Part shown: in pieces, positions 1 through 58,553 of the stretch
Position numbering within the stretch: position 1 is the stretch's first letter
Layout: each line of letters begins with the position of its first letter
From: a virus
DNA: 64,000 bases
IMG/VR virus record: IMGVR_UViG_3300009506_000019
Span: 32,001-96,000 of that record
Reading direction: 5' to 3' (one strand)
Translations under genes and position numbers: made by a program
Notes under the pieces: generated by a model
Database searches by the model: none
Told to the model about the DNA's origin: nothing
What the model saw: only the letters and a program-made list of their open reading frames with translations

Positions 1-1
1 A

Positions 2-1180
2 CCTACCGACTTCATCATCATAGACGAGTGCCATCTGTCTCTGGCCGTATCATACCAGAAGGTAATGTGCCACTATGAGGACACACCAATCCTGGGTCTG
101 ACGGCCACTCCGTGGCGCACGGACGGCCAGGGGCTTGGCCGGATTTATGAAGACATGGTGATGGTGTCCCAGGTAAAGGAACTGGTCAGAAAAGGCTACC
201 TTCTTGCCCCGGAGATCTTTGCCCCGTTTCGTCCCGATCTGTCCAGTGTTAGGATAAAACTCGGTGACTACGTAGCATCGGACCTATCCATGGTCATGAA
301 TAAGAGTCACCTGATTGGTAGCATCGTCACTCACTGGAAAAAATATGCACAAGGTATGGCTACTGTTGCATTTGCAGCATCACGGAAGCACAGCAAGCAC
401 ATAGTACAGAATTTCCTTGACGCTGGAATTCCAGCTGCACATCTAGACCATGCTACCCCCAAAGACGAACGCGAGTCTATTCTACAACAATTGGCTGTTG
501 GAAGTCTAAAGGTAGTATCCAACGTTGGCATTCTAACTGAAGGGTGGGATCTTCCACAGCTTGAATGCCTCATTATGGCAAGACCAACAATGTCAGAGAC
601 GCTCTACCTACAAATGGTGGGGCGTGTGATGCGCACCATAGAAGGTAAAACTAGAGCTTTGGTGCTAGACCATGCTGGTTGCTTCTTCAGACACAACTCA
701 CCCATCGTCGATCGTGATTACTCACTCGATGATAGGGTACAAGAACGCAAAGGTAAAAAATTCGGCAAAAGACACATCAAAATCTGCCCAGACTGTCACC
801 GTGTCTGTGCAGCTAATAATGTTACGTGTCCTGTGTGTGGATTCAATTTCGATGCAGGGAGAGTCCCAGAAGAAATACCTGGCCAACTGGTTAGGATCAG
901 AGAAGAATATGTGCCATCATGCAAAAATTGTGGCCAACAATCACTACGACGAGCAAATAGAGGCTACATATCAGAAAACGCAATAGAATATAGATGCGCG
1001 GCGTGTAGAATGCCAAATATTCTGGCCACCACCAAATTGCGAGACCTAGATCAGGCACAACGACACAGGGAATTTTGGAAGTTGAAAACATACGGAATTA
1101 GCAAAGGATACAAGCCGCAGTGGGCCGAATTCAGCTACACAGAACTGTTCGGCATAACACCAAAACAGGACAACTTCTAA
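2..1180 (+). CDS. SF2 DExH helicase (RadD/YejH-like) with C-terminal zinc ribbons, 5'-partial
   Basis: Frame open from window start (IIIDECH at 14-34), motifs GLTATP, LTEGWD, YLQMVGRVMR, LDHAG; CxxC pairs at C-terminus. Confidence 0.9.
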   Translation, partial: PTDFIIIDECHLSLAVSYQKVMCHYEDTPILGLTATPWRTDGQGLGRIYEDMVMVSQVKELVRKGYLLAPEIFAPFRPDLSSVRIKLGDYVASDLSMVMNKSHLIGSIVTHWKKYAQGMATVAFAASRKHSKHIVQNFLDAGIPAAHLDHATPKDERESILQQLAVGSLKVVSNVGILTEGWDLPQLECLIMARPTMSETLYLQMVGRVMRTIEGKTRALVLDHAGCFFRHNSPIVDRDYSLDDRVQERKGKKFGKRHIKICPDCHRVCAANNVTCPVCGFNFDAGRVPEEIPGQLVRIREEYVPSCKNCGQQSLRRANRGYISENAIEYRCAACRMPNILATTKLRDLDQAQRHREFWKLKTYGISKGYKPQWAEFSYTELFGITPKQDNF

Positions 1181-1476
1181 TGACAAGACCTATGTACGTG
1201 ATTTGTAAATGCTGTGGAAACAAACGTGGAGTTGCTCCTCAGGAGCAACAGTGCGTCTGTATCTGCACGTCGTGTGGAAAAAGGCCAATACAAGGAACGC
1301 CAATTGAAGCAGATGGACGATGTGAAGATTGTCATCGTCACCCGCCAGGCACGCCATGGAAAGGTGGCACGCTACCCAACGGATGTGAGCTATACGTCAT
1401 GCCGAAAGATTGGAAACCAGGAGATCCAATCAGAACGTCTTCCACGACTGAGACTTCGGAACAGCCTTCAGAATAA
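1180..1476 (+). CDS. Small Cys-rich zinc-binding hypothetical protein
   Basis: ATG overlaps helicase stop (TAATG); CKCC, CVCICTSC, CEDC. Confidence 0.6.
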   Translation: MTRPMYVICKCCGNKRGVAPQEQQCVCICTSCGKRPIQGTPIEADGRCEDCHRHPPGTPWKGGTLPNGCELYVMPKDWKPGDPIRTSSTTETSEQPSE

Positions 1477-1630
1477 CCTTCTTTACGTCAAGACTACTTT
1501 CACACTTCGGGCAAGTAGGCTTGCTGTCTGCAGTCTCTTTGAGCGTTTGAATTGCCTCGAATTGATACGGCTCCCCATCATTCTCTTCGAGGCACTTGAT
1601 ACTGCTACATTCGAAATCATACATCGGCAT
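1430..1630 (-). CDS. FmdB-family zinc-ribbon protein
   Basis: MPMYDFEC...C...FE...PTCPKCES...KKVI pattern. Confidence 0.8.
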   Translation of the reverse strand: MPMYDFECSSIKCLEENDGEPYQFEAIQTLKETADSKPTCPKCESSLDVKKVILKAVPKSQSWKTF

Positions 1631-1811
1631 GGTAGATCATCTCCTGAGCTTCAACAACATTGTCATCCAGCTCTTGCTTGTAGCCAACATACTGAGCGTT
1701 TTTGAACACTACGTGCTCACCGTTGTCTGCATAAATCACGTGTAAGTCCATCCCCTCCTGGCCCTTCTCCCACCACATCCTCTGGACGAATCGACTTTCT
1801 GTGTTCGGCAT
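1617..1811 (-). CDS. Hypothetical protein
   Basis: 64 aa ORF in tight minus-strand operon. Confidence 0.55.
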   Translation of the reverse strand: MPNTESRFVQRMWWEKGQEGMDLHVIYADNGEHVVFKNAQYVGYKQELDDNVVEAQEMIYHADV

Positions 1812-2001
1812 GTATGAGTTCCTTTATGGTATCACTGAACACAGTGTGATTTCGTTTATTCATAATGTCATTCAATTTCTTCTTTGTGTCCAGGTCCAAA
1901 TGAAAGATGAATGTTGTTACATGACCAGCCACGACGGTTTCCAATTCGGATCCGTCGCCTTCTGGTATGTCTCTGCTAGAATCCTGAGGCTCATCTCGCA
2001 T
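1717..2001 (-). CDS. Possible ribbon-helix-helix DNA-binding protein
   Basis: TTFIFHLDLDTKKKLNDIM...FSDTIKELI strand-helix-helix pattern; long overlaps with neighbours. Confidence 0.45.
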   Translation of the reverse strand: MRDEPQDSSRDIPEGDGSELETVVAGHVTTFIFHLDLDTKKKLNDIMNKRNHTVFSDTIKELIHAEHRKSIRPEDVVGEGPGGDGLTRDLCRQR

Positions 2002-2150
2002 GGGTCTTTGCTCCCCTCACCATCAAACTTCGTCTTGAAGCTCTTGACCCAATGCCTCTCTATCGGATGAAGGGGATCCTTCTCCTCCTGATTCTTCGGT
2101 TCCGTTTGCTCTATCTTCTCCAGGATCTTGCGCTGGCTGGGGGTCAACAT
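1917..2150 (-). CDS. Hypothetical protein
   Basis: 77 aa ORF overlapping the trigger factor 3' end. Confidence 0.5.
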   Translation of the reverse strand: MLTPSQRKILEKIEQTEPKNQEEKDPLHPIERHWVKSFKTKFDGEGSKDPCEMSLRILAETYQKATDPNWKPSWLVM

Positions 2151-3369
2151 ACGTGAAGTTTACCTTTTCATCAATAAGGTGATGCAGAACCTTCTCAGCA
2201 TACCCTTGTTCGTTCCTCTCGTATTGCGGCTTGTCCTTCTCTTCCTCGTCCCACTCAATGCCAAGAAACTCCCCGATTTGTTTGAGCAGCGTATTCTGCT
2301 TTGCTACACGCTTCAACTCTTGCCGCAAGAACGGAGTGTCTTGATGCTTGCCCTTGGCTATCAATTCCCTAGCATGTGCCTCTGCCCACGCATCGGGAAA
2401 ATCCGGATACTTGATGGTTGAGGTTATGTGATCGAGAACCAATGTCTTCTTGGTCTGTTCTTCACGCGACTTGTTGATTCTGTCTGCCGAGTCAAATAAG
2501 CTCTTTTTCCATTCCTCGAGAGAGTCATAGCCAGCAGTTATTGCAAGATCATCATCAACTTCTGGCTCTGTACACCTGTAGACACGATTAACTGTGACAC
2601 GAATTTCGAACTTGGACTTGCCCTCGAAATCTTGCTTGAACGGGCCTGGAATCTCTTCAGGATTGGTGGTTGTGATGGAGAACGTGTTACCAGGAACAGA
2701 ACCGAGAAGCTTCTCATACAAAGAGCGAGGATTAACACCGCCCTCGACCAATCGAATATTGGTCGCCTCGTGACTTCCATGATCGAATTTTTCATCATCC
2801 AGGAAAGCTACAATCATGACCTCTACCATGTCGTCTTCTGCTGCTGGTAGAGTATTCCCCTCGTCATCTTCTTTTATGTGGAGGTATGGATTGATGCGAG
2901 AAAAAGCCATGATTCTGTAGTTAACGTAATCGTCTGGGTTCAGCTTCTGTATATCAAAAGCCATCTCCAGATCTTCTTCCTTGATTTCTGCTTTGGGCTC
3001 CACTGCGGTCTTGAATGTGACTACCCATGACCCATCATCATTCTCGACGGCATCCATGTCGTACGTGTGAATAACCTTGTTTGGAGATTTCTCCAAAATT
3101 TTTGCATTTGCGTAGGTTACAAATGAGGCAGCGTATACAGCTTGTATTCCACCCATTCGCTGCTCAATGAGACCAATAGGAGCTTTCCCCTTCCTGAATC
3201 CATTGATTTTAATGACCTTGCGCTGCGCCTTCATATAATTCGTCTTGATCTTCTTTGCCATCTCATGAGCGACAGTGAAGGTAACATCAAGACCGATGTT
3301 GTCGGTATCAGGAATGGAAACCGCGTCGAGCGTGTATTCTTTGTCCACACTATCGGTGAAACCGCACAT
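2023..3369 (-). CDS. tig: Trigger factor homolog (ribosome-associated chaperone)
   Basis: Ribosome-binding signature KINGFRKGKAP; central FKBP-like segment (DDMVEV...DDEKFDHG...KLLG..PG); EVDDDLA...GYDSLEEWK; 448 aa. Confidence 0.85.
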   Translation of the reverse strand: MCGFTDSVDKEYTLDAVSIPDTDNIGLDVTFTVAHEMAKKIKTNYMKAQRKVIKINGFRKGKAPIGLIEQRMGGIQAVYAASFVTYANAKILEKSPNKVIHTYDMDAVENDDGSWVVTFKTAVEPKAEIKEEDLEMAFDIQKLNPDDYVNYRIMAFSRINPYLHIKEDDEGNTLPAAEDDMVEVMIVAFLDDEKFDHGSHEATNIRLVEGGVNPRSLYEKLLGSVPGNTFSITTTNPEEIPGPFKQDFEGKSKFEIRVTVNRVYRCTEPEVDDDLAITAGYDSLEEWKKSLFDSADRINKSREEQTKKTLVLDHITSTIKYPDFPDAWAEAHARELIAKGKHQDTPFLRQELKRVAKQNTLLKQIGEFLGIEWDEEEKDKPQYERNEQGYAEKVLHHLIDEKVNFTYVDPQPAQDPGEDRANGTEESGGEGSPSSDREALGQELQDEV

Positions 3370-3377
3370 GATGTCTC

Positions 3378-5396
3378 CTACGCAGCCAGTTGATTGGCTT
3401 CATAAATTTCCAGCGTGGAAATTTCATTCTCCATGTGTGCTGTCCATCTCTCATCAAACGCCATCGTGTTCAATAGCCTGGTGTTGTGAGAGATAATCAA
3501 ACATGTTGGCACCAGCTCTACGATAGACTCAAAAGCTTCGACCAACTTGTCAGCATTAACATCGTCCAGATTCTCATCCAATTCGTCCACTGCCGTGATG
3601 TTTACACCCAAACCACGTTCAATAGACAGTTGAATCATAGCAAGGAATGTGGCCACAACTATAATCTTCTTCTGACCACCAGAATACATCTCAATTGGAA
3701 CACCAGTCTTCTTTTCTGTGTCCACGATGAAATTGAGACCAGACACTATACCTTTACCTCTAGTGGTGCTTCTAGCTGTGACAAAACGAGCAAACAACCC
3801 AGGCCCCCACAATTCATACAATCTATCGGCCAACAGCTGATTCAGCCTATCTATGGCAGCCTCATATTCTTGTATCCGAATCTTTTTCAAGTTGCGTTCT
3901 GTCCATTTGAGGTGCGATATCTCATTGGTCATAGACACAGCTTGAGTTTCAAGATGTTGAATCCCAGCTTCGATCTGCTCTACTTCATTAATCTTGCTTT
4001 GTAGGCTAGCCAAATGCATCTTGGCAATGGAGATATTGGTTGGTGCCATCTTGATTTCGTTGTTCAGATAGCTGAGTTTTTCATTCAGATGCTCAATTGC
4101 AGAACATATGTCCTGGTATTCTTTCTTTTTGGCGAGTTGTTTTTGTTTGGATTCTTCCAAATGGCGCAGCTCTTCTTCCATCTTCAATTTCGCTGCGGCT
4201 TTAGCTTCCCCTACAGCCTTCTCATGTGCAGCAACCAAACGACCATGATCTTCATATAGAGCATCGACCTTCAATCCTCCATCAGAGATGAGGTCTGTTA
4301 GGCGCTCTATTTCTTTCTTGAGATGCTCCTGGTCAACCACTTGTCCACAGTTACTACATACTCCCTCACCAACAGTCTGGTAATGATTTACTGTAGTAAG
4401 ATTATTGCGATTCTCCGCCTGAAGGGTCAGAATTTGATTGTGAATAGCACCAATCTTTTCTGGCTCCGGTGGTGGTTCAAAATTTTCATATCTTTCCCTG
4501 CTGTGCCGTTCTTCTGCAACCAGAATTTGTAATTCCTGCTCAACATCATCTATAGTAGATTGCTTCATTTGAAGCTCAGATATTTGTTGCTGAGTTGTGG
4601 CTGCAGCCTGGCATAGGCCCTTGTAATTCTCTTCTACCACTTGAACAGACCTAGCTGCCTCCTGTATGTCCTGTTCAGTAGGTAAGATAATATGATTCAA
4701 CGAGTTCTTCCTACCATTGATTTCACTATTCAAATTAGCAAGCTCTGTATCTTTGTTGGTATATGCTGCCTTGGCTATCTCCGCAGCACTGGTCCAAATA
4801 GAGACATCAGCTATCGCCTGAATGATTTTCTCTCGAGCACCACTTGTGCCCAACACCAATGCCGATTCTGCACTCTGCCCCAGACACACATAGGCAGAGA
4901 ACTGGTCATACGTCATACCGAAGATGTTATCTATAATGAACTGCTTCGCATCATCCATACTTTTGTTATCACGCGAAGCGGTGGGCCTCATATCAACCCA
5001 CTGACTCCCATCCCACATCTCAACAAAGATGTCGTCACCTGTGTATGTACCACCCAACGATAAATGTTGACTCGGACCATCCACACCTTGAGGATAAGTA
5101 GTACCTCTCCATTTGCGAATATTCATGATACGCCACGTCTTGCCTTCACGATCTACACACCACAAGACGCCAAACATACCGTTATCCCAATCGACATGGT
5201 GATTAACCACATTCAATCCGGATTTGGTAGTATCATTCTTACTGAATGCAATCTCTTTGATAGAATTGAGAATGGAAGATTTTCCACTCCCATTGCGTCC
5301 AGAAATCAAAACTCGACCTTTCTTGTCGAGCTGAACAACTGGCATCCAACCAAATGAAAACATGCCAGTAGGATTTACCGCTAAGATAGTCAGCAT
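3378..5396 (-). CDS. sbcC: SbcC/Rad50 (gp46-like) SMC ATPase
   Basis: Walker A GRNGSGKS, Q-loop CLGQ, coiled coil with zinc hook CSNCG, signature YSGGQ, Walker B/D-loop VDELDENLD, ISH; start moved to MLTIL. Confidence 0.92.
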   Translation of the reverse strand: MLTILAVNPTGMFSFGWMPVVQLDKKGRVLISGRNGSGKSSILNSIKEIAFSKNDTTKSGLNVVNHHVDWDNGMFGVLWCVDREGKTWRIMNIRKWRGTTYPQGVDGPSQHLSLGGTYTGDDIFVEMWDGSQWVDMRPTASRDNKSMDDAKQFIIDNIFGMTYDQFSAYVCLGQSAESALVLGTSGAREKIIQAIADVSIWTSAAEIAKAAYTNKDTELANLNSEINGRKNSLNHIILPTEQDIQEAARSVQVVEENYKGLCQAAATTQQQISELQMKQSTIDDVEQELQILVAEERHSRERYENFEPPPEPEKIGAIHNQILTLQAENRNNLTTVNHYQTVGEGVCSNCGQVVDQEHLKKEIERLTDLISDGGLKVDALYEDHGRLVAAHEKAVGEAKAAAKLKMEEELRHLEESKQKQLAKKKEYQDICSAIEHLNEKLSYLNNEIKMAPTNISIAKMHLASLQSKINEVEQIEAGIQHLETQAVSMTNEISHLKWTERNLKKIRIQEYEAAIDRLNQLLADRLYELWGPGLFARFVTARSTTRGKGIVSGLNFIVDTEKKTGVPIEMYSGGQKKIIVVATFLAMIQLSIERGLGVNITAVDELDENLDDVNADKLVEAFESIVELVPTCLIISHNTRLLNTMAFDERWTAHMENEISTLEIYEANQLAA

Positions 5397-5498
5397 ACCA
5401 TCGATCCTGGGCCTTTTAACGTGGTGAGGAAAGGCCATAACCTCATATTGACCCCGGTGACACAGGACCACCACTGTTCCAAGCGTGACAGCTCAGAA

Positions 5499-5696
5499 CT
5501 AGAACTCCACAACGTGCAGCATCTCGGCATCCAGCACCACGAGATCCTCGCTGTCGGACTTCATCTTGAGATTTTCCTTCAACTTCTTCTTCGCCTTTGA
5601 GATGGCGATGTTGATGTTGGCTGCCACACCGTACATCGTCACTTTCTCATTCTTGTCCTTCGGATTCTCAATCACCACTTTCCACATGTACTTCAT
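5499..5696 (-). CDS. Hypothetical protein
   Basis: 65 aa ORF, 4-nt overlap with upstream gene. Confidence 0.6.
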   Translation of the reverse strand: MKYMWKVVIENPKDKNEKVTMYGVAANINIAISKAKKKLKENLKMKSDSEDLVVLDAEMLHVVEF

Positions 5697-5923
5697 TTGA
5701 ATCTCCCGTTGTTTTGCCGGATGCCCTTCTTTTGGGCGAACCAGGTAGGAACAGCCACTATTTTCCTGTCAAAAGACAGCGTTATTTTTGCAATCTTGGG
5801 AACCCACACATGCCCAAAATCTGTATTGAATAGTCTGGCGTCCGCTGTCTCTTTGATGATTCCATAGTGATACACATAGGTCACTTCGGAATTGGAAAAC
5901 TCTGACACACCAAAACTACTCAT
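5693..5923 (-). CDS. Small beta-rich phage protein (ETxxA...WxPK...PxW type)
   Basis: KETADARL...VWVPK...VPTWFAQKKG; resembles 24939..25133. Confidence 0.6.
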   Translation of the reverse strand: MSSFGVSEFSNSEVTYVYHYGIIKETADARLFNTDFGHVWVPKIAKITLSFDRKIVAVPTWFAQKKGIRQNNGRFK

Positions 5924-6195
5924 AACAGATCACTCGGTTCGATGTTATTATTTATCATCAATCGGATAGCGTCTTTCACTATCTGACCAACGATCTCATC
6001 ACCAGGCCAATGAGTAACCAGTCTACTTTTTAGTCGAATCTCCTCAGGATCAACATAAGTTCGTTCGATCGTACCCAAATCAGACACTTCTGCACGGACA
6101 CGTTCATGTATGTCCGTGTGATAATTGTCACGTAATTGAGCAACAAAACTCTTTAGATTTTTGAGGTCTTTCCTCTCATCAAAAATGTCACTCAT
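5920..6195 (-). CDS. Hypothetical protein
   Basis: 91 aa ORF, coupled overlaps. Confidence 0.6.
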   Translation of the reverse strand: MSDIFDERKDLKNLKSFVAQLRDNYHTDIHERVRAEVSDLGTIERTYVDPEEIRLKSRLVTHWPGDEIVGQIVKDAIRLMINNNIEPSDLL

Positions 6196-6436
6196 TTGTG
6201 AAAGTTCCTTCCTGACCAGCCTCTGGCTCTGGCTCTTCTAGCAGGTAGCCGATAGACCGAAGCGCTTTGTTGACTTCTTCCCACGCCTTCGTCAGTTGGC
6301 CAATACTCTGGCAGACACGGGGCGTCCGCTCGAACGACATCATCTGCATCTTCGTGTCGAGCAACGCTTGGCTGGCTACGGTTATCTGACCAGTCATTCT
6401 GTCCCGTTGTACTTGCGTAGGCGTCTGTCGAATCAT
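6188..6436 (-). CDS. Hypothetical helical protein
   Basis: 82 aa ORF in operon. Confidence 0.5.
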   Translation of the reverse strand: MIRQTPTQVQRDRMTGQITVASQALLDTKMQMMSFERTPRVCQSIGQLTKAWEEVNKALRSIGYLLEEPEPEAGQEGTFTNE

Positions 6437-6502
6437 GAAATGTCAGCACTCCATTCGTTGCCGCTGTTGCTCCTGGGTAAGGTACAATAGCCGCCATGGT
6501 CA

Positions 6503-7612
6503 TCAAATAGCCCTTCTCGCTTCCCGGATAGCCCATTTCCCCATCTCTGCAAGAAGCAATGGGTCAAATTCCTTTGTGTTGATACCACTCACCCAAGCAC
6601 ACCACTTATCTTCTGGTTGCGTGGCCTCCATCATACCCGGTGCTATTTGTACCTTTTCATAGGCTCTATCAATTATGATTCTACATCTCCTAACACCGTG
6701 TTGTTGAATTGTATTCTCAATCAACTCAACATTGAGAGAGCCTGCATGCTTTCCCATAAAAGTAATTTCAACAATACCTTCATTACCATCAAGCTGTGAT
6801 TGAAGAAGCGACGTTGTTTTCATCAACGCGTCCATGTCGTTCACAGCCTCGAGCTTCTTTCGTACAAAACGTGGTGACTTGGATGGAACAAAATACATAT
6901 CGAGACGTGGCTGTTCATTGAAGTTTACACACATGTGCCAGAAGCCACGCAATTGTTCTCTGTCACCCCAATTGTGTTGAAGTGGAGCACCTACGTACCT
7001 AGATGGACAGCCCAAAAGCTCAGTCAGATCTTGCGGAGTGTGGTTGTCTCCTCCGATGATGTAATCCGCCTCCAACCTTCTGAGAAGATTAGGATGAATA
7101 CCGCTGCTAGCAGAAGAACCACGAGCAAGGGCAGAGCCAGCGACAAGACCATGGAATAGTACAACAAGAGGGCGAGGATGATCCCTATCCAAAGTAGCAA
7201 TTTCAGGATGCCTTTCATAACCCGATGGAATACAGAGGAAATGAACACCCTCAATCTCGAATTGTTGCACATTCTCTATAACCCGAATATTTCGAAGATC
7301 CGTTTTATATATAGCCGCACTGATAAAAGCGTGCCCACTTGCCGCCGATTTGGTCCATCTATCGTGATTTCCGACAAGGACAATGGTTTCAATACCGGAA
7401 TCTGACCTTCTTTTCCAAGATTCTTCGGCAGCGGCAATAACACTCCGATTTGGATTTGTTGCTCTGTACCAATCTCCAAGGAAGAAGACTTGTCGTATTT
7501 TGTTTTCGATTGCATACTGAGTCACCTGGTCTTCGATAGCAACAATGTCGGCTTCCACAATGCCATTATTGTAGTCATCATGGTGAATGTCTGAATAAGC
7601 TATGAATTGCAT
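6503..7612 (-). CDS. sbcD: SbcD/Mre11 (gp47-like) metallophosphoesterase nuclease
   Basis: SDIH, LGDWY, GNHD, FHG, GDNH, YVGAP motifs; near sbcC. Confidence 0.92.
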   Translation of the reverse strand: MQFIAYSDIHHDDYNNGIVEADIVAIEDQVTQYAIENKIRQVFFLGDWYRATNPNRSVIAAAEESWKRRSDSGIETIVLVGNHDRWTKSAASGHAFISAAIYKTDLRNIRVIENVQQFEIEGVHFLCIPSGYERHPEIATLDRDHPRPLVVLFHGLVAGSALARGSSASSGIHPNLLRRLEADYIIGGDNHTPQDLTELLGCPSRYVGAPLQHNWGDREQLRGFWHMCVNFNEQPRLDMYFVPSKSPRFVRKKLEAVNDMDALMKTTSLLQSQLDGNEGIVEITFMGKHAGSLNVELIENTIQQHGVRRCRIIIDRAYEKVQIAPGMMEATQPEDKWCAWVSGINTKEFDPLLLAEMGKWAIREARRAI

Positions 7613-7884
7613 CAGTGTAGTGTCTCGTTCTTGTCCCGCTCAAATCGTTCATCGGGCACATAGTGTCTGTTGTCCTCTACAATATAAATATCCACATTCC
7701 TCTTCCTATTTGCAAAAATGTAAACGATGCCGACTATGATACCAACCCAGGTAAATACACCAAATACAATGAAGAATGGAAGCCAATTACCGGTATAAAT
7801 ACAACCGGCAGTTACCCCACCAATCACAACGATAGGGTAAAAATGACGTTTAAGCTTCTGGCCCATTCTCCACAACGTCAGCAT
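7612..7884 (-). CDS. Small membrane protein (2 TM)
   Basis: Two hydrophobic segments followed by a charged tail. Confidence 0.6.
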   Translation of the reverse strand: MLTLWRMGQKLKRHFYPIVVIGGVTAGCIYTGNWLPFFIVFGVFTWVGIIVGIVYIFANRKRNVDIYIVEDNRHYVPDERFERDKNETLH

Positions 7885-8206
7885 AGTAATTAATGTACCA
7901 AGCTGCCTTCCTTAAATCCTCTACCTTCTTGCCTGGGTCCTTTTTACCAGCACGTGCGATGTATTTCAACGCACTACCAAGACAAAATCCCTCGAGCCAA
8001 CCATATCCTCGAATAACCTTGATAGGCTCGAATTTGGCATGCTCACCACCGTAATGAGATGGGTGATTCACCATGTCTGGTTTGTCTTTGACTACTTCTG
8101 ACATGGGCTTTCCCGATGGCCAAATTGGATCATTGGGGCTTTTCTGTGAACAGTTGTCATGGTGCTGACTAAATCCATACCCACACTCATCACAAGTTTC
8201 GCTCAT
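7850..8206 (-). CDS. DUF3310 (T7 gp1.7/SaV-like) putative nucleotide kinase
   Basis: DMVNHPSHY...FCLGSALKYIARAGKK...EDLRKAAWY. Confidence 0.88.
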   Translation of the reverse strand: MSETCDECGYGFSQHHDNCSQKSPNDPIWPSGKPMSEVVKDKPDMVNHPSHYGGEHAKFEPIKVIRGYGWLEGFCLGSALKYIARAGKKDPGKKVEDLRKAAWYINYYADVVENGPEA

Positions 8207-8823
8207 ACCCCTACCGTCCTGAAGATTTCATGTGCCTCTTCCTCTGGAACTTCGCATCCCTTTACCCGATTGAGATGGATGTGGCTGCATTCATGCATAT
8301 AGGCGGTTTGCTCAATCGGTTTACCTCCCTGACCGACTTTGATGAAATTACCTGAAGCCACCCCATATACCAACCGCATTGGATAACCAGGCGTAAGCAC
8401 CTCAAACACACCAGGAGCCACAAATAAACAAATAAGGCCATTCAATATGGTGTGTTGAGCTGGAATACTCTTGAATTTCTCATAATACATGTCCCATCGA
8501 ATGAACATCTCACCTGTTGTGTCTTCCACATCTTTCAACAGATAGAGTGTCGTTTTGTCATCAAAGAAGCATTGGATACCATGTTTAGTCGTGAACTTCC
8601 ACTTGGAAATCCACTTCCATCTCTGATAGTAGAATGCCACGAAAATGACGACACACGACACCAACACGGCAATCGATGTGACCCATCCACCTACCGGCAC
8701 CTTTTCTCCCCAGGTGTCAGCGTTTAGATGGCTTGCGATCGCTGCAGATATGGCTATTAAGCCCAGAAATAGCGCGAACCAAATTGGAAAAATGTCTTTT
8801 GCTCTGATTAAGCTCGGCTTCAC
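8203..8823 (-). CDS. Membrane-anchored putative zincin-like metallopeptidase
   Basis: Two N-terminal TM helices; HExxH motif (MHECSH) near C-terminus. Confidence 0.55.
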   Translation of the reverse strand: MKPSLIRAKDIFPIWFALFLGLIAISAAIASHLNADTWGEKVPVGGWVTSIAVLVSCVVIFVAFYYQRWKWISKWKFTTKHGIQCFFDDKTTLYLLKDVEDTTGEMFIRWDMYYEKFKSIPAQHTILNGLICLFVAPGVFEVLTPGYPMRLVYGVASGNFIKVGQGGKPIEQTAYMHECSHIHLNRVKGCEVPEEEAHEIFRTVGV

Positions 8824-9040
8824 GGCTAATCTCCAAAAGTAAATGTTCTATGTTGGCAATTGCCCCATCCAGCCAACTAACTATCGAATCTGGGCAATCA
8901 TCTTCTTCATAAAAAGCCTCCAAATCTTTCTTGATGCGTTCAATCTCGTAGAGATAAAAATCAATGTTGTTCTCAAAGATTTTTACTTTGGCTCTACATG
9001 AGTCGCAGCCGAATTGGAGGCGCGTGTGCTCGCATGTCAT
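8717..9040 (-). CDS. Hypothetical protein
   Basis: 107 aa ORF, N-terminal C/H cluster. Confidence 0.5.
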   Translation of the reverse strand: MTCEHTRLQFGCDSCRAKVKIFENNIDFYLYEIERIKKDLEAFYEEDDCPDSIVSWLDGAIANIEHLLLEISREAELNQSKRHFSNLVRAISGLNSHICSDRKPSKR

Positions 9041-9354
9041 TTAATTACTTGTTCTGGCATATAGATATATACTGCAGCCTCCTCCTCACAGCACTCACAT
9101 CGATAACCGCACCGATAAATAGCGCCACGAATCAATGGTGTTTTCTTTCGATTGGTTTTGTTCACAATGGACTTGTGAATGGTAATGCACTTTTTCGGCA
9201 AATCCTTCAGCTCACTGAAGAACTTGATTGGTCTCCCCTCAAAACCAATATGTACAGACATCAACGGCTGATGTTTGAATCTTGGTAAAAACAAATCCAA
9301 CCTGGAGTTGTCTTTGTCAATGTTCGTACGTTTGGTTCTGGCTTCTACAATCAT
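9037..9354 (-). CDS. Hypothetical protein
   Basis: 105 aa, ATGA overlaps at both ends, CGYRCECC. Confidence 0.55.
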   Translation of the reverse strand: MIVEARTKRTNIDKDNSRLDLFLPRFKHQPLMSVHIGFEGRPIKFFSELKDLPKKCITIHKSIVNKTNRKKTPLIRGAIYRCGYRCECCEEEAAVYIYMPEQVIK

Positions 9355-10013
9355 ACTTCCACCTCGTAATGTTCAAATACAGGTGGTGTTGGAGGCTCTT
9401 GCCCCTTGCTCTTACGATATGCTGAAAAATCGAGGAACTGTTCCTCCACCCACTGTCTTTGTGATTGGATGAACTTCTGCAGCGTCTTGGGGAAAGTAGT
9501 ACGTGTAGCTGCCATTTTAAGCAACACATTACCACATGCCGTAGAATCGTTCATGGCACGGTGTGCACCAACCAACGGAATGCCGTACTTGTCTGCGGCG
9601 TCTGTCAGTCGCTTTCCCTTGTTGTATTTGTGCCACTTTTTGAAAAGAATCATAGGGTCTGCCATGGGTTTCAATGGAAATTCCATGCCCACGCGCTTGA
9701 ATTCTTCTTTCAACACACCACGATCGTAATCGTAGTTATAGGCGCAATGAATGTCATAAATGTTCAACGTATTCCATACCCACCATGCAATCTCAGCAAA
9801 CGTCGGTGAGTCTTCAACATCGACGTCTGTAATTTTGTGTACAGCTGATGCACCTGGGTCGATAGGAACAAGCGGTCTGACAAACGTGCCCCATTCCTGT
9901 ATTGGCTTCGCATTTTTGAATAAACTGAAGCCAATCTCAACCACATGATCACCAAGAATGGCGGTCTCGGTATCGAATACTAGCACGCTGCCTTTTAGGA
10001 AATCAGGAATCAT
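9351..10013 (-). CDS. dnaQ: DEDDh 3'-5' exonuclease (Pol III epsilon-like)
   Basis: ExoI FDTET, ExoII AYNYDYD, ExoIII AHRAMND. Confidence 0.92.
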   Translation of the reverse strand: MIPDFLKGSVLVFDTETAILGDHVVEIGFSLFKNAKPIQEWGTFVRPLVPIDPGASAVHKITDVDVEDSPTFAEIAWWVWNTLNIYDIHCAYNYDYDRGVLKEEFKRVGMEFPLKPMADPMILFKKWHKYNKGKRLTDAADKYGIPLVGAHRAMNDSTACGNVLLKMAATRTTFPKTLQKFIQSQRQWVEEQFLDFSAYRKSKGQEPPTPPVFEHYEVEV

Positions 10014-10279
10014 TTTTCTATTGGTCTTCCCATGATGTCGGTCATAGGCACCAGACCGGGCACCTCATCGGCTGGTTTGTGCTCAGTATACGCACAATTC
10101 GGACACTCAAGAGTGACCGAATTCTCAATGTGTGATCGCACATGAAGCACACGATCTTCGTGATTGCCAGCAGCATTGCATGACGGACAAGGAATATTGG
10201 TCTTCTTTTCGAATTTGACTCGTCGTCCTTTTTCAGACACCAAGTCACCAATTATGTTCTCCGCCATCTGGATCTCCAT
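10010..10279 (-). CDS. Zinc-ribbon protein
   Basis: CPSC...CPNC. Confidence 0.65.
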   Translation of the reverse strand: MEIQMAENIIGDLVSEKGRRVKFEKKTNIPCPSCNAAGNHEDRVLHVRSHIENSVTLECPNCAYTEHKPADEVPGLVPMTDIMGRPIEK

Positions 10280-10538
10280 TCAATATGAAAGTTTTTCTCT
10301 CTGCAACATTGCAAAGAGTATAGACTGCATCTTTGTATCTTTTACTATGTTCTATCTTTTGTAGAACAGAGTGAATGTCTGATGTTACGGACGCCAATCT
10401 CTTGGACATGTCTTTTGGTACGAGCTTTCCTAACTCTTTATCTTTAGTCAGGTCTTGTATGGGAAACCCTATGGAATCCAAAGCTACCACAAGTTTCCTC
10501 ATGCCGCGTATTGCGACAATTAATTCAGCGTCAGTCAT
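10245..10538 (-). CDS. Hypothetical protein
   Basis: 97 aa ORF coupled to dnaE stop. Confidence 0.55.
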   Translation of the reverse strand: MTDAELIVAIRGMRKLVVALDSIGFPIQDLTKDKELGKLVPKDMSKRLASVTSDIHSVLQKIEHSKRYKDAVYTLCNVAERKTFILNGDPDGGEHNW

Positions 10539-13500
10539 CCAATGCTTCCATAGAAATTAAATACTTAATATCATCACCAAAGTTCTTGACTGCATCATCC
10601 AGGATGTGGGGAGGAACTGTAATCCGACCACGAATAGATGCATATTTCCTGGGTCCAAGAACACTGATGTTATTTACGATACCACCTATATGATTAACAA
10701 CCTCACTCGGGTCATGGCCATTCAGGCGAAATACGCCCTGTACTGGCAATCCATTTGCTAGGTTAATGGCATTATCGACACGCAACATCACCTTATCATC
10801 TCTGAACTTGTCTGGTTTCACCACGCACTCAAACATGGCAATCTCACCAGCCACCAAGATCTTTTGCAAATCTTCACACAATGGCCACCAGACATTGGTA
10901 ACAATAAAGCCTTCACTATCACTCAAGCTGATGTTGAGGTACGGCCTGCTAGGAAATCCACGTTCTGGATTTTCCTTGGTCTGCTTCCTATAAATGTAAT
11001 CTATCATCCCAACGACCAGAACTGACTCACCGATTTCACACTCCATATTAGCAATATGAACGGGCATCACAACTCTAGTGTTGCCTCTTTCCAAGTGAGT
11101 GGACAATCTGTGATAAATAGCCGCTGGGTGTCCGGTAATAAATGAGTTCAAAGATTCTCGCTCATTTTGAGAAATCTCGAGTTCTGTGTACTCATGCCCA
11201 TTCACACCCTCGAGCTTCATAGCTATCTCGATAGGTGAAACTTTGGAGCCATCGAACTTCTTATTTTTCTTCTTGGCCCACTTGTTGATCACATCGATAT
11301 TGTCTACCTTGTCTCGATCACAGAGCATCTTATCCCATGTGAATGCTCCTGCTTTAACCAGGTTGACTTTGGCTGTCTTGTTGACGCTGGGCATGCGCTG
11401 ACAGAAGTTGATGAACGAAGTAAATGGGCCACCGCTTCCTCTTTCAACAACAATTTCTGGTGCTGATTTGCCGACATTTCTTACGGCTGCAAGCCCCATA
11501 TAAATGTTGCCATCTGTTCCAACCTCGTAATCGATGTGGGATTGATTGATGTTAGGTGGAAATACCTTACACTTGCCACCACCAATAATCGAACGCAAAA
11601 GAGTAGGAAGCCGCTTATTATTTCCGCGAAATGCGTCAAGCAACGAGGCATAATACTCGGACGGATAGTGCGCCTCCAGGTAAGCAGTCACATACGTAAT
11701 CCAACCATACCCGCACGAGTGACCACGGTTCCACATGTAACGTGCGTAACCATGAAGCTTCTTGGTCAGATCGTCCACCCAAGATTCAAGAGTGCCTGTC
11801 CAATCTGGTGGTGGCTCCAGACCTGGCATCTTCATTGCACCAACTTTGAAGTCTTCAATACAAGCGTCCACTACCTCCGGAATCTTTTTACCAATTCCTT
11901 TACGGAATTTGTCTGCCTCTACGTCACTAAAACCAGCGATGATGCGTGCCATTGCCATCGCTTGTTCCTGGAACAAGACGGTTTGATACGTGTCGTTCAG
12001 AACCCCATCTAACCAAGGATGCCAGCTAGTAGCGGCTTGCCTTCCGTGTCTACGTTCCACGTACTGGTCCGTAACTCCCGACTCCAACGGTCCGGGACGG
12101 AATAGTGCGTTGAGCGCCATGAGGTGCTCGAAATTTCGCGGGTTAAGTTGTTTACAGAGCCTGCGATAGCCTGTTGAATCGAGTTGGAAGACGGACACAT
12201 AATCTGCGCCTGCAACGAGATCAAATGTGGCTGCGTCGTCGGTTGGCAGGTTATAGACATCAAGATCAATTCCATGTCTCGCCTTTATTCTGTTGACTGC
12301 GTACTGAATAATATCGATATTGCGTAACCCCAGCATATCCAGCTTCAGAAGACCAAGAATCTCACAATCGTACATGTCGTACTGAGTACCAGACAATCCG
12401 TCTTCTTCAGGTGGAGGAATCAACGGCACCAGCTCATTTAGAGCTTCATTCGACACCACTACACCAGCAGCATGAAAGCCGAGATTTTTGGCTGTACCAG
12501 TCAGTGCCAGAGCAATGGGAAGCCACTCTGGCTTGAAATCCATCATCTTTTTGATTTCTTCTTGAACGCTCGAGTCCAAGCTGTCCCATTCTGTCACATC
12601 GTCTGGAATGGCTTTACGCAAATCCCTGTTCACTGTGTGTGGGACTTGTAATGCACGGCCTACATTCTCAATAGCTGCCCTAAGAGCCATTGTCTGGTAG
12701 GTAGCAATGTGTGCGACACGATCCTTTCCATGCACGTCTGCGATATGAGCCAAAACCTCTGGTCGTCTTTCTTGGGAGATGTCAGTATCGATATCGGGAA
12801 GGTCTTTACGTCCAGAGTGAATGAATCGCTCAAATGGGACTCTCCATCTAATGGGGTCCATTGTAATAATGTCGAGAGCATAGCACACCAAACTACCAAC
12901 AGAAGAACCACGTCCAAACGGAACCATGATTCCTTGTTTCTTCATCCAACTAACGATTTCACCAATCAACAAGAAGTAACTAGAAAATTTCTTGTCTTTC
13001 ATCACACCGAGTTCATACTGAAGACGCTCTATGTACGCTGGGTCGCTTGCCTTTCCCTTTTCGTACATTCCACGCCATGCGTCCATCTCCAGTTGTCTGT
13101 GTGTCTCATCGAAATCGGTGTATTCTTTTCCTCCACTCTTATAGGTTGGAACGATGAATTCTTTGTTGACTAGTCCGTAGTCTTCTACCCTTCGAGCTAC
13201 GGCCATCGTATTTTGAACCCAAGGCTGAGCGTGTTCGAAGAAGGAACTAAAAAATACCGGTGGTTTGAACCAATTGTCTATTCCCTCTGGAACATGAATG
13301 TCCAAAGCATGCTTTCCAATTTTGCGACCTACACTATAAGCAAATGCTTCATCTTCATTGGTATACAGTACATTACCTGTCACCAAAACTGGTGTCTGTG
13401 TCTGCTGTGATACCTGATTGACGATACTGATGACTTCTGATCGTGTCGTGTTGATCTCTATATAAGTCTCCATCCTTGGCTTCACAACATTCAGCATGTA

Positions 13501-14238
13501 GCCAGCCATGTTGAAATCACCACCAAAATCAACCATGGCAATCAGGTCTTGCGACACAGGAATATCGGCATCGGTGATAAACACACCGTCTTTGGTCTTG
13601 CGTTCACACCATGCAACGGTCGTCATTTTAACCAGTTGCTTGTAACCATTTCGATTCATAGCTATGAACGTAATGGGATAGGTAATCACGTCCACTTTTA
13701 CATCGAATTCCACTCCAAGGATGGGTTTGATTCCCTCTTTTTGACAATCTTTCACAAAAGTTGGGGAACCACACATATTGCCAAACTCTGTCTTGGCCAG
13801 AGCTGGCATTCCATATTCCTTTGCTTTTTTGATGAGATCGGATGGCTTACAGGTAGCCTTAAGCAGGCTAAGATGAGTATGCACGCGTAGATGCACAAAC
13901 GAGTTCAGATAGGGATCGGAATATGCCTCAAGTGCTTCTCTTTGGGATTCTGGACTGTGACAATGAGATAATGTTTCACCGAACGCGTCTGCGGTGATGG
14001 TGTCGTTTGATGGAATGCGTTCCCTTTCTTCGAGCACATAATTGTTACTCGGCGCATCGAGCAAACGCTCATCATGTTCATCTGCGGACCCCATATCTTC
14101 ACCCATTAATATAACACCGCAATTTTGACACATTCGTGCGTTGAAATCGCTCGACCAATGAATGGCTGGTTTTGGGCAACCACAGCTAGTCATCCATAAC
14201 CTCAGCTCATCCAGGTTATACTTCTGCCTCTGCGCCAA
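10531..14238 (-). CDS. dnaE: DNA polymerase III alpha subunit (family C)
   Basis: PHP (VHLRVHT, GIKPILGVE), GRGSSVGSLV, catalytic LPDIDTD, HAAGVV, GLLKLDMLGL, LFRPGP, OB fold; no intein seen. Confidence 0.97.
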   Translation of the reverse strand: MAQRQKYNLDELRLWMTSCGCPKPAIHWSSDFNARMCQNCGVILMGEDMGSADEHDERLLDAPSNNYVLEERERIPSNDTITADAFGETLSHCHSPESQREALEAYSDPYLNSFVHLRVHTHLSLLKATCKPSDLIKKAKEYGMPALAKTEFGNMCGSPTFVKDCQKEGIKPILGVEFDVKVDVITYPITFIAMNRNGYKQLVKMTTVAWCERKTKDGVFITDADIPVSQDLIAMVDFGGDFNMAGYMLNVVKPRMETYIEINTTRSEVISIVNQVSQQTQTPVLVTGNVLYTNEDEAFAYSVGRKIGKHALDIHVPEGIDNWFKPPVFFSSFFEHAQPWVQNTMAVARRVEDYGLVNKEFIVPTYKSGGKEYTDFDETHRQLEMDAWRGMYEKGKASDPAYIERLQYELGVMKDKKFSSYFLLIGEIVSWMKKQGIMVPFGRGSSVGSLVCYALDIITMDPIRWRVPFERFIHSGRKDLPDIDTDISQERRPEVLAHIADVHGKDRVAHIATYQTMALRAAIENVGRALQVPHTVNRDLRKAIPDDVTEWDSLDSSVQEEIKKMMDFKPEWLPIALALTGTAKNLGFHAAGVVVSNEALNELVPLIPPPEEDGLSGTQYDMYDCEILGLLKLDMLGLRNIDIIQYAVNRIKARHGIDLDVYNLPTDDAATFDLVAGADYVSVFQLDSTGYRRLCKQLNPRNFEHLMALNALFRPGPLESGVTDQYVERRHGRQAATSWHPWLDGVLNDTYQTVLFQEQAMAMARIIAGFSDVEADKFRKGIGKKIPEVVDACIEDFKVGAMKMPGLEPPPDWTGTLESWVDDLTKKLHGYARYMWNRGHSCGYGWITYVTAYLEAHYPSEYYASLLDAFRGNNKRLPTLLRSIIGGGKCKVFPPNINQSHIDYEVGTDGNIYMGLAAVRNVGKSAPEIVVERGSGGPFTSFINFCQRMPSVNKTAKVNLVKAGAFTWDKMLCDRDKVDNIDVINKWAKKKNKKFDGSKVSPIEIAMKLEGVNGHEYTELEISQNERESLNSFITGHPAAIYHRLSTHLERGNTRVVMPVHIANMECEIGESVLVVGMIDYIYRKQTKENPERGFPSRPYLNISLSDSEGFIVTNVWWPLCEDLQKILVAGEIAMFECVVKPDKFRDDKVMLRVDNAINLANGLPVQGVFRLNGHDPSEVVNHIGGIVNNISVLGPRKYASIRGRITVPPHILDDAVKNFGDDIKYLISMEALDD

Positions 14239-14953
14239 TGTTAGTAAATGCCTTCCTGAAGCAACCGTTGGGCTTCACACACAACACCTTGTCATTCTTT
14301 GGATCCACCCCAAATTCATCCGTCAGAGCACCACAAGAATCACACCTGACAGTGCCCACATCTGGACGAGCTATCACCTGCTCTCCCAGCTCTGACGCCA
14401 ATAACTCACAATCAGATGCCGCATCCGGTGGCATAAAATTGCGAAAATCTTCATTCACCCCAACAGCTCTTTGAATGATCACACTGAAGTATTCCAGGGT
14501 AGGTCCCTTACCAGTAACACCTGGAACTATACTCGGATAGATAGTGGCAATTCCACCACCATCGATAGCGTAGCGCTTCTTATATCTACGCTTACTATCA
14601 ATGTCGAAGTCCAGCTGTTTCATCATTTTGGTAAATTTGAGTCCAAACGTGGCTTCCTTGTCCTGCCCATTCCCTTTCGGATCTGGAGATTTATCCAAAC
14701 GACGAACAGCACTTTGGGTAGTATCAGCAATCTTCTCGCGTGCAGATTTCTTCTTCCCCGCAGGAGGCTTGCACTTGCTATTGCTTGGAAACTGATTTGC
14801 GGACGCACAAGTCTGCTTGTTCTTTGCAAACTTGCCAACAACCAAAGATGCACCACACGCATCGCACTCCACGATCTTCTGTTTGGCAGGGTCCAGCTTT
14901 ATGTTTCTAACGTTGCTGCCTTTCATGTTAACCTCACCGCAGGCCAATGCCAC
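14216..14953 (-). CDS. Hypothetical protein with N- and C-terminal zinc fingers
   Basis: CDACG...C..C and CDSCG...C...C; Lys-rich linker. Confidence 0.65.
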   Translation of the reverse strand: MALACGEVNMKGSNVRNIKLDPAKQKIVECDACGASLVVGKFAKNKQTCASANQFPSNSKCKPPAGKKKSAREKIADTTQSAVRRLDKSPDPKGNGQDKEATFGLKFTKMMKQLDFDIDSKRRYKKRYAIDGGGIATIYPSIVPGVTGKGPTLEYFSVIIQRAVGVNEDFRNFMPPDAASDCELLASELGEQVIARPDVGTVRCDSCGALTDEFGVDPKNDKVLCVKPNGCFRKAFTNIGAEAEV

Positions 14954-15740
14954 GTTGCTGGGCAGCTACCAGCAGCTTCTTCCTTGCAACAGCATATAGC
15001 CTAGTTATTCGAGGGCGAGACACACCCATGACTTTGGATAGATAGGTGTGCGTTCCATCGATAAGTCTTGTTTTGTTCGATTCGTTCGCATGTGCCAGGC
15101 AGAATGCTATGACTCGATGTTCGTTCGCATTCAGTGTAATTCCATCATCGATTATTTTGATAAGAGATTCAATAATATCTCTGTCACTATACTCCTCTTC
15201 GAACGTGTTTCCTGTTTCAAACACAGCAATTGCATGTCGATCGTTATCGGAAAAGTCTGAATCTGAGTCTGATTTTGGATTGCTGCCTGAGAGTGAATGT
15301 TTGGTATAGAATCGGCGCTGTTTTTGAAACGACCACAGCACCCATTTTCTTGCCCATCCGGTCTTGGGATTTGTTCCAAACAAATACTCGGTAAGATAAG
15401 CAGACTCCCCGATTCTATATCCATGTTCTTCATCAATGAGACACTCGATGACCCTGGATTCAAGATCCATGATCAAATTGTTCATGTCAACGTAGCCATT
15501 GCCTACCCTGGCCACAGCATTGTTCGCTAATCTCACCAAACTTGGACGTACCATCTGCAACAATAATCGAGATGATTCCTCTCGATTAATGTCCAGACGA
15601 ATCCTACAGGCGAGGATATTGATGACTACGTTGCGAGGAGTGGTTCTTTCAGAATAGCACTTACTGACATATCTGCAAGTGCCACATTTTTGCTCTTGCC
15701 GGGCACTCCGTGGCGTGGATGGAGTTAGCCCGTACATCAC
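14934..15740 (-). CDS. Sigma-70-like factor / region-4 HTH transcription regulator
   Basis: LNANEHRVIAF...THTYLSKVMGVSRPRITRLYAVARKKL resembles sigma region 4; helical region-2-like N half. Confidence 0.65.
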   Translation of the reverse strand: MMYGLTPSTPRSARQEQKCGTCRYVSKCYSERTTPRNVVINILACRIRLDINREESSRLLLQMVRPSLVRLANNAVARVGNGYVDMNNLIMDLESRVIECLIDEEHGYRIGESAYLTEYLFGTNPKTGWARKWVLWSFQKQRRFYTKHSLSGSNPKSDSDSDFSDNDRHAIAVFETGNTFEEEYSDRDIIESLIKIIDDGITLNANEHRVIAFCLAHANESNKTRLIDGTHTYLSKVMGVSRPRITRLYAVARKKLLVAAQQRGIGLR

Positions 15741-15946
15741 AACTCAATGCCATCCTTCAGCGTCAACGTTGCGTCGGTAGCATTGAGCTTTACGTCCCAA
15801 TCATAGAAATTGGGTGGTTCCTGTGCTGACCAAAGAAAATTCTCTTTCCCAGCGTCTACATCAACTTGAACTTCAAAATCCAAGTCTTTGTAGGTTTCAG
15901 ATGCGGCCACTTGATCTACTACTGCCTGAAGACTTGTAAGCATCAT
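15737..15946 (-). CDS. Hypothetical protein
   Basis: 69 aa acidic ORF with coupled overlaps. Confidence 0.55.
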   Translation of the reverse strand: MMLTSLQAVVDQVAASETYKDLDFEVQVDVDAGKENFLWSAQEPPNFYDWDVKLNATDATLTLKDGIEL

Positions 15947-16134
15947 ATTGACACCCCCTCAAGCAACCACATCTTTCCTGTGTTGACATCAATCCTGACA
16001 TCAGCTTCACTTGCTGATTTGGTCACCCCATCAGTAAAGATGTACACAACGCCGCTGTTTGCCATGACGTATGCCGCACCAGAATACGCGGCGAGCACAG
16101 CATCAATCTTGGATTTAAGTTGGGTGGCTGTCAC
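15943..16134 (-). CDS. Hypothetical protein
   Basis: 63 aa ORF with coupled overlaps. Confidence 0.5.
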   Translation of the reverse strand: MTATQLKSKIDAVLAAYSGAAYVMANSGVVYIFTDGVTKSASEADVRIDVNTGKMWLLEGVSI

Positions 16135-16327
16135 GTTCTTTCTCCTGAACTACGCGCTGCGCTTCTTTGACGACTTTGAGCCAATTGCTGGTTTCCCCAG
16201 CTTTATATGTTCTCCAAATTTCGTCGCGCAACGGCTTGGGTACTTTGAACCAATGAGGTTTACACATGAGCATATTGCGTGGAATACGCTCACTACATCC
16301 TACGGCATGACACGTCGTAAACCCCAT
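16115..16327 (-). CDS. Small zinc-finger phage protein
   Basis: CHAVGC...LMCKPHWFKVP. Confidence 0.65.
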   Translation of the reverse strand: MGFTTCHAVGCSERIPRNMLMCKPHWFKVPKPLRDEIWRTYKAGETSNWLKVVKEAQRVVQEKERDSHPT

Positions 16328-16330
16328 GAC

Positions 16331-17746: not shown

Positions 17747-17889
17747 AGCCTACTTCTATGTGAACTTCGTGTCCAGTCCTATCGTGATGCTGAACAGCAA
17801 CGCCATGAGCGTTCTTGCTGTCCCAGGTCTTATCACAATCAAAGCAATGAGCTATGAGATGAACCCGACCACCACCACGATAATTTCTT

Positions 17890-31214: not shown

Positions 31215-31379
31215 TCAATCATCATCCCAGCATCTACACGGCAAAATACTGTCACCGTGGAACCTGCCACAATGAATACAATACTTCTCACGTATTGCAT
31301 TCAAGAACTTGAGCCGCTCCTCTTCACTCATCTCCTCAAATTCAGGGAGAACAATGCTGAGAAGCTGCTCAATGGTCAT
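31215..31379 (-). CDS. Small zinc-binding protein
   Basis: ATG coupled to upstream stop; CIHCG...CRC. Confidence 0.6.
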   Translation of the reverse strand: MTIEQLLSIVLPEFEEMSEEERLKFLNAIREKYCIHCGRFHGDSILPCRCWDDD

Positions 31380-58394: not shown

Positions 58395-58470
58395 TGGCGG
58401 GAGAGGAGGGACTCGAACCCTCATCAAACAGGTTAACGGCCTGTTGCTCAGCCAATTGAGCTACACTCCC
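58395..58470 (-). tRNA. tRNA-Asn(GTT)
   Basis: Cloverleaf, loop CCGTTAA, GTTCGA, CCA. Confidence 0.9.
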
Positions 58471-58474
58471 GCAT

Positions 58475-58549: not shown

Positions 58550-58553
58550 ATGT

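Follow-up and report, generated by a model that had tools for sequence, protein, structure and literature searches.

A very divergent, full-length trigger factor homologue encoded in the genome of a myovirus

The gene at positions 2023-3369 (minus strand) of the DNA analysed here, a window of 64,000 nucleotides that covers positions 32,001 to 96,000 of IMG/VR virus record IMGVR_UViG_3300009506_000019, encodes a genuine, very divergent and full-length homologue of trigger factor (TF), a protein which is regarded as a housekeeping chaperone of bacteria (and plastids). The open reading frame (ORF) is intact and its product, P0001, comprises 448 amino acid (aa) residues. An initial annotation, made from the sequence, had already proposed a full-length, phage-encoded TF, and the domain, profile and structure comparisons described below substantiate this assignment, while its view of the prolyl isomerase site required revision.

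Concerning the homology of P0001, hidden Markov model (HMM) searches matched Pfam Trigger_N to residues 22-135 with 48.8 bits (gathering cut-off 22.2 bits; E 1.1e-12) and NCBIfam TIGR00115 (tig) to residues 29-380, corresponding to profile positions 5-366 of 410 (E 3.5e-29). The Pfam FKBP_C and Trigger_C models found no match in the 448-aa protein, and consequently the three-domain HMM check suggested in the initial annotation was positive for the N-terminal domain and negative for the other two. A phmmer search against PDB sequences recovered the E. coli TF 1w26 (E 4.5e-7), with GFRKGKAP of the phage protein aligned on GFRKGKVP. Profile-profile comparison by hhalign of 32 members of the phage clade, which is described below, with 61 other TFs (E. 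coli TF included) returned a probability of 100 and an E value of 3.4e-43 over residues 23-403 versus E. coli 8-418, and all three domains are thereby covered.

An AlphaFold2 (AF2) model built on 14 relatives (mean pLDDT 82.8) presents the three-domain TF fold on which the initial annotation had staked its assignment. Foldseek searches of this model against the PDB returned full-length TFs, namely 3gty (E 1e-17), 2vrh (E 1.9e-15) and 1w26 (E 6e-15), while VIA aligned 365 residues to the Thermotoga maritima TF 3gty (Z 17.0) and 370 residues to the E. coli TF 1w26 (Z 14.4). VIA further matched residues 171-269, the head, to FKBP and SlyD domains (Z 9-10; root-mean-square deviation 2.1-3.3 Å), and the arm domain, despite lacking a Pfam Trigger_C match, is still aligned both by hhalign (E. 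coli 246-418) and structurally as far as model residue 412. According to hhalign the arm domain is approximately 45 residues shorter than that of E. coli TF. The TF fold is preceded by an N-terminal extension of approximately 11 residues, model residue 12 being placed against TF residue 1 in the VIA alignment, and is followed by a tail of which residues 412-440 have pLDDT values below 50 and in which the AF2 model predicts a helix at 436-447. The tail peptide EGSxxxDRExLGxELQxEV is kept only among the nearer relatives and is absent or truncated in many clade members; where conserved, this terminal peptide may represent a candidate docking motif for some partner.

The signature loop of bacterial TFs is well preserved in the phage protein. 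All loop and pocket counts given here derive from a joint alignment of 32 members of the clade with 109 other TFs. In it, a loop of the GFRKGKAP type is kept in about 28-31 of the 32 clade members, and the bacterial majority residue is found in the clade rows at G43 (97%), F44 (88%), R45 (94%), G47 (91%), K48 (78%) and P50 (66%). The 8-residue window best conserved between the clade and bacterial TFs starts at E. coli position 43 (score 0.69), the next independent region being the D-D/E-x-A linker that follows the head (score 0.39). Trigger factor binds uL23 at the ribosome exit, and we know of no constraint on its signature loop other than ribosome docking. Since exactly this loop has been kept while the rest of the protein is only approximately 25% identical to bacterial TFs, we infer that uL23 docking would also have been retained, loop retention being the strongest, albeit indirect, argument to this effect. 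In the distant members P0014 and P0024 (L002 8001-9272) the loop bears an insertion and reads G-L-G-K-I-P-E-H-L-A-K-K-L-E-K-K-G-K-V-S, so that the inserted stretch looks like a partial duplication of the docking loop.

The head domain has been remodelled at the positions which form the prolyl isomerase pocket in other TFs. The canonical FKBP pocket was defined by seven E. coli positions, F168, F177, F185, I195, F198, Y221 and F233. In a residue map on which hhalign and MAFFT agree, F168 corresponds to I186 (I or V in the clade), F177 to F195 (F or Y), F185 to T203 (T in the clade), I195 to N213 (polar in the clade), F198 to L217 (L or M) and F233 to I256 (I, L or M), while Y221 corresponds to I240 by hhalign or to the conserved F244 by MAFFT. 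Adjacent to these positions, P196 corresponds to the clade-invariant P214, which is followed by R215, a one-residue insertion without an E. coli counterpart, and G197 to S216. Based on the MAFFT alignment P0001 thus keeps two of the seven pocket residues, F195 and, if it is counted as the Y221 equivalent, F244, and five or six positions are substituted. The three motifs on which the initial annotation had relied, GFRKGKAP, PRSLY and NPEEI, were all confirmed by translation at the positions it had named, and its notion of a non-canonical FKBP pocket holds for the clade as a whole, which keeps a median of two of the seven canonical residues, versus six in other TFs.

The description of this site as "eroded", however, was not upheld. 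Mean pairwise identity within the clade is highest in the head (43%), compared to 31.5% in the N domain and 37% in the C domain, and bacterial TFs rank their domains by identity in the same order. P214, L217, Y218, L221 and G223 vary little or not at all across the clade, and the head carries a fixed motif, ATNIRL...P-x-S-L-Y-x-K-L-x-G. Neutral decay of the head, the best conserved domain of the clade, was accordingly rejected, and since this domain also retains a fixed motif it is remodelled and under selection rather than eroding; its simplest role would be that of a binding surface. Degeneration of the pocket is not unusual among TFs as such, because no more than three of the seven residues are kept by 20 of the 109 representatives outside the clade, and in several of these position 198 is Leu. 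The ESM-Atlas clusters closest to the phage protein in features, which we regard only as a lead, are likewise TFs mostly without FKBP_C, some with the Pfam FKBP-like_TF domain. PPIase (peptidyl-prolyl isomerase) activity is reportedly dispensable for the chaperone function of TF in vivo. Canonical FKBP catalysis by the phage head is unlikely, given that the pocket is mostly replaced and that a single change at one of its positions, in E. coli TF(F198A), is described as abolishing PPIase activity (PMC7804408).

Relatives of P0001 form a clade of their own. An exhaustive phmmer search over 1.84 billion cluster representatives returned at least 22 clusters (50% identity clustering) at E <1e-30 and with 31-62% identity to P0001, after which a gap extends to ordinary TFs near E 1e-13 (24-30% identity). 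The 32 aligned members range from 390 to 470 aa and possess invariant residues in every domain. A FastTree phylogeny in which these 32 members were combined with 71 other TFs separates the clade from the rest (99% support; stem length 0.68 changes per site); as regards a sister lineage, the tree offers only long-branch neighbours and no particular bacterial sister. All six contigs examined (Table 1) share the gene order DnaE ... RNase T-like exonuclease ... SbcD ... SbcC, then TF, at TF identities of 26-62%, the sbcC stop and the TF start either overlapping by up to 14 bp or lying up to 9 bp apart, and two of the records that carry a clade TF gene are 100% complete according to CheckV. A pattern search derived from the clade alignment identified no relative in prokaryotes, of which 185,579 species were covered by one GTDB genome each, and the same search of IMG/VR identified one related contig, while a search for related loci returned none with a single SbcC protein and one more contig with an SbcC alignment. 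The conserved synteny, the viral-only occurrence and the well-supported single clade point to a single acquisition of the gene, which has since been passed on vertically over a long period within this phage family. On these genomic grounds, the TF gene is a vertically inherited core gene of an uncultured myovirus family with genomes of approximately 160-186 kb.

The remark in the initial annotation that TF is rarely described in phages is in keeping with the literature, as a full-text search identified no paper describing a phage-encoded TF. BFVD yielded no viral structure of TF fold. Searching GenBank phages by tblastn produced only 10 weak matches (23-27% identity), and the two "phage" records inspected, MT835536.1 (L010) and OR846597.1 (L009), both of which are flagged UNVERIFIED, proved to contain bacterial DNA: one tig-clpP-clpX-lon string and one canonical tig beside a PTS transporter gene, a piece of Enterococcus chromosome being among these segments. 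Since they represent canonical bacterial tig in UNVERIFIED records, these matches are attributed to contamination. The survey of phage genomes called for by the initial annotation was therefore positive with respect to the clade in IMG/VR contigs and negative with respect to GenBank phages. The profile phrog_26774 was considered as a possible profile of the clade and rejected, because E. coli TF scores 407 bits against it end to end while P0001 reaches 72 bits and the distant members P0014 and P0035 are missed altogether; it is consequently a profile of bacterial-type TFs.

The source genome, that of a myovirus, comprises 166,061 bp in one virus record (CheckV completeness 100%). PHROG matches in the window include a DnaE-type polymerase with a separate exonuclease, SbcC, SbcD, a primase-helicase, UvsX, ribonucleotide reductase, a PurZ-like enzyme and a tail sheath. 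The positions of the TF gene, its domains and its nearest relevant neighbours are compiled in Table 1. No promoter-like or terminator-like site was found in the 8-nt gap between sbcC and the TF gene, and the latter is probably co-transcribed with sbcC as part of a replication/recombination gene string, with probable translational coupling. GroES, GroEL, Hsp70, peptide deformylase (PDF) and ClpP were not found in the phage genome, and in the absence of GroES, GroEL and Hsp70 the TF is its only classical chaperone. The genome further contains 26 tRNA genes (ARAGORN), 25 of which form a cluster on both strands at approximately window 58395-61782 (genome 90395-93782) with specificities for nearly all amino acids, one more being located at genome position 25834.

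Table 1. Location of the phage TF gene, its parts and neighbouring genes in the window, together with the further contigs in which the gene order is shared.
Feature	Window position	Strand	Basis or remark
Phage trigger-factor-like gene, 448 aa and stop codon (P0001)	2023..3369	-	ORF, HMM, profile-profile and structure comparison
N-terminal ribosome-binding (Trigger_N) domain, residues 1-135	2965..3369	-	Pfam Trigger_N at residues 22-135; DSSP on AF2 model
TF signature / putative uL23-docking loop GFRKGKAP, residues 57-64	3178..3201	-	On E. coli G43-P50; checked by translation
Linker from N domain to head, residues 136-170	2860..2964	-	hhalign and AF2 model
FKBP-fold head domain, residues 171-269, fold intact, pocket remodelled	2563..2859	-	VIA; residue map
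PRSLY, residues 214-218, replaces E. coli P196-G-F198-E	2716..2730	-	One residue inserted; L217 = F198; translation-checked
NPEEI, residues 236-240, replaces FPEEY (E. coli F217-Y221)	2650..2664	-	phmmer, hhalign; translation-checked
C-terminal helical "arm" domain, residues 270-410	2140..2562	-	hhalign to E. coli 246-418 with gaps; VIA to model residue 412
Disordered acidic tail and terminal helix, residues 411-448	2026..2139	-	AF2 model; clade alignments
SbcC/Rad50-like ATPase gene, directly upstream of the TF gene	3378..5474	-	phrog_77, E 4.6e-52
SbcD/Mre11-like nuclease gene, same leftward gene string	6503..7612	-	phrog_100, E 1.9e-27
sbcC stop codon TAG overlapping the Shine-Dalgarno sequence AGGAGA of the TF gene	3374..3380	-	AGGAGA 4 nt before the TF ATG
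Synteny contig, 68.7 kb
Synteny contig, 174.6 kb (L001)
Synteny contig, 45.5 kb			TF at 35% identity
Synteny contig, 160.7 kb			TF at 26-31% identity
Synteny record, 177.9 kb			CheckV 100% complete

A number of further observations were made on this genome and its relatives. A bpMoxR-type AAA+ ATPase is encoded outside the window at genome positions 23750-24271 on the plus strand (E 9.4e-56) and in relatives adjoins a VWA-domain protein (L001 14220-17329); it represents another chaperone-like module that is conserved in the phage family. Downstream of the TF gene lies a 66-aa ORF with a CxxC...CxxC zinc ribbon (window 1430-1630, minus strand), and small ORFs with weak or faint Zn_ribbon_8 matches occupy the same place in two relatives. 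A 458-aa protein (window 31379-32755, minus strand) matches phrog_1211, a PurZ-type adenylosuccinate-synthetase-like family (E 1.3e-58), and this PurZ-like enzyme could indicate a 2-aminoadenine (Z) genome. The nearest relatives of the tail sheath (window 43397-45025, minus strand) are those of phiKZ-like jumbo Pseudomonas phages (37-41% identity), despite the 166-kb genome and the DnaE polymerase, the latter being approximately 30% identical to the DnaE of the nearest cultured phages. In the relative L001, DnaE (L001 1-623) comprises 1392 aa with an intein (Pfam Intein_splicing), compared to 1235 aa in the window. A megablast search of window positions 1-20000 against GenBank phages gave no match.

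Concerning its function, we consider it most likely, and hold with reasonable though by no means full confidence, that the phage TF is a ribosome-bound, ATP-independent holdase/foldase for phage nascent chains, docked at uL23. Due to its probable co-transcription with sbcC in the replication/recombination string, it would be produced before or together with the bulk of the phage proteins. It would then compete with host TF on host ribosomes, docking at uL23 by means of the conserved loop, and offer an ATP-independent holdase/foldase cradle to phage nascent chains, the head domain acting as a conserved binding surface and not as a canonical prolyl isomerase. Homology, fold, phage origin, clade conservation and synteny are demonstrated by the present analysis, whereas ribosome binding, chaperone activity, PPIase loss and client identity are what we infer for the phage protein. 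Further points in favour are the 26 tRNA genes, by which the genome invests heavily in translation, and the strong Shine-Dalgarno sequence AGGAGA of the TF gene. That the protein displaces host TF and folds phage nascent chains, as proposed in the initial annotation, is plausible in view of the conserved loop, whereas the suggestions that fibre proteins are its particular clients and that it conceals nascent chains from defence sensors found no support in this analysis.

Several points weigh against this interpretation. The TIGR00115 score of 101.9 bits falls below the equivalog cut-off of 180.2 bits, for which reason the phage protein is a homologue and not an equivalog; as it combines the architecture, fold and signature of TF with failure at both this cut-off and the canonical pocket, it is best named a divergent viral TF subfamily. 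The docking loop is interrupted by 12 inserted residues in P0014 and P0024 and is degenerate in P0028 and P0032, and its last proline is replaced by S, T or another residue in approximately one third of the clade members. Host TF is normally abundant and the benefit of a second TF is therefore not obvious, while the constant placement of the gene beside sbcC might point towards some more specific client.

Other explanations have to be weighed against that of a nascent-chain chaperone. A more far-reaching variant, which we consider speculative and rather improbable, is that of a private exit chaperone of the phage family which physically replaces host TF, its P-x-S-L-Y-x-K-L-x-G head surface and terminal peptide having been retooled for phage clients or for host ClpX or the signal recognition particle (SRP). 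Somewhat more doubtful still is the notion that docking at uL23 mainly serves not to assist folding in general but to displace host TF, SRP and SecA, and possibly to affect PDF/MAP access, so that host protein targeting is shut down or ribosomes are biased in favour of the phage. SRP is a competitor of TF for uL23, and overproduced TF slows export in E. coli and is toxic; such a takeover would furthermore agree with a docking loop that resembles bacterial TFs more than any other element does, with a cradle and a head that have diverged strongly, and with arms that are shorter than those of E. coli TF. A blocker of this kind would need the N domain only, yet numerous invariant residues occur in the head and C domains, and no domain is better conserved than the head. 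By far the least probable explanation is a non-functional gene, whether a mis-assembled bacterial fragment or a recently captured and decaying host tig. While the weak matches in public "phage" records are indeed such contamination, and phrog_26774 is a profile of canonical bacterial-type TFs, the TF gene of the window lies inside a tightly packed phage gene string of a 100% complete record, at least five more large contigs of viral origin contain an intact orthologue in the equivalent place, and the gene encodes a protein of approximately 25% identity to any bacterial TF within a monophyletic and conserved clade. Synteny and clade conservation thus effectively refute mis-assembly or a passenger gene.

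It is equally conceivable, and just as doubtful as the takeover of the exit site, that the protein acts off the ribosome as an assembly chaperone or adaptor, either for the co-translated coiled-coil SbcC and SbcD or by modulating the action of host ClpXP on phage replication proteins. The TF gene always directly follows sbcC, with near-abutting or overlapping stop and start codons, across 26-62% identity, but since the whole replication module is syntenic this adjacency is weak evidence. The best structural match is the T. maritima TF 3gty, a structure whose title describes an assembly chaperone together with a folded client. A precedent for an adaptor role is provided by E. coli TF, a ClpX-binding protein that enhances the breakdown of lambda O by ClpXP, an effect for which its PPIase activity is not required (PMC7804408). 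A docking-like terminal peptide is common to the nearer relatives, yet many clade members lack the tail, the genome is without ClpP, and retention of the ribosome-docking loop would be left unexplained by an off-ribosome role.

A conserved, phage-specific TF lineage would add co-translational folding at the exit tunnel to those aspects of translation that viruses are known to control (through tRNAs, ribosomal proteins and PDF), and if host TF were indeed replaced the phage would control nascent-chain fate, which would constitute a new layer of viral translation takeover. The phage TF also represents a natural experiment on the features of TF, in which the docking loop has been kept, the PPIase pocket has been replaced but fixed and the arms have been shortened, and it provides a compact protein with which competition with host TF may be tested.

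When compared to known systems, the phage TF most closely resembles bacterial Tig (E. coli 1w26/2vrh, T. maritima 3gty), with which it shares the same three-domain order and fold over approximately 365-370 residues as well as both the GFRxGxxP docking signature and the D-D/E-x-A linker motif after the head. It differs from bacterial Tig in being only approximately 15-30% identical, below the equivalog cut-off and without FKBP_C or Trigger_C matches, in its five or six substitutions among the seven pocket positions (including F168I, F185T, I195N, F198L and F233I), and in its arms, shorter by approximately 45 residues, its N-terminal extension of approximately 11 residues and its 38-residue acidic tail; moreover, it is virus-encoded and its gene adjoins sbcC rather than clpP-clpX. 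A head that fails FKBP_C or lacks the aromatic pocket is also found in the degenerate-head TFs, i.e. the Pfam "FKBP-like_TF" (PF28537) clusters, which are commonest in Bacteroidota, and chloroplast TIG1 (7zgi), the latter matching the phage TF model with Z 11.3 (VIA). These bacterial and organellar proteins, however, are products of cellular housekeeping genes, whereas the phage clade is monophyletic and set apart by a long stem. Phages are known to encode other folding and nascent-chain factors, namely the GroES-like gp31 of T4, the GroEL-like chaperonin of phage EL and the peptide deformylase of cyanophages, and in each of these cases, as in the present one, the phage supplies its own version of a host component for protein folding or nascent-chain processing. 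The phage TF, however, belongs to another class of factor, that of the ATP-independent, ribosome-bound chaperones which act co-translationally.

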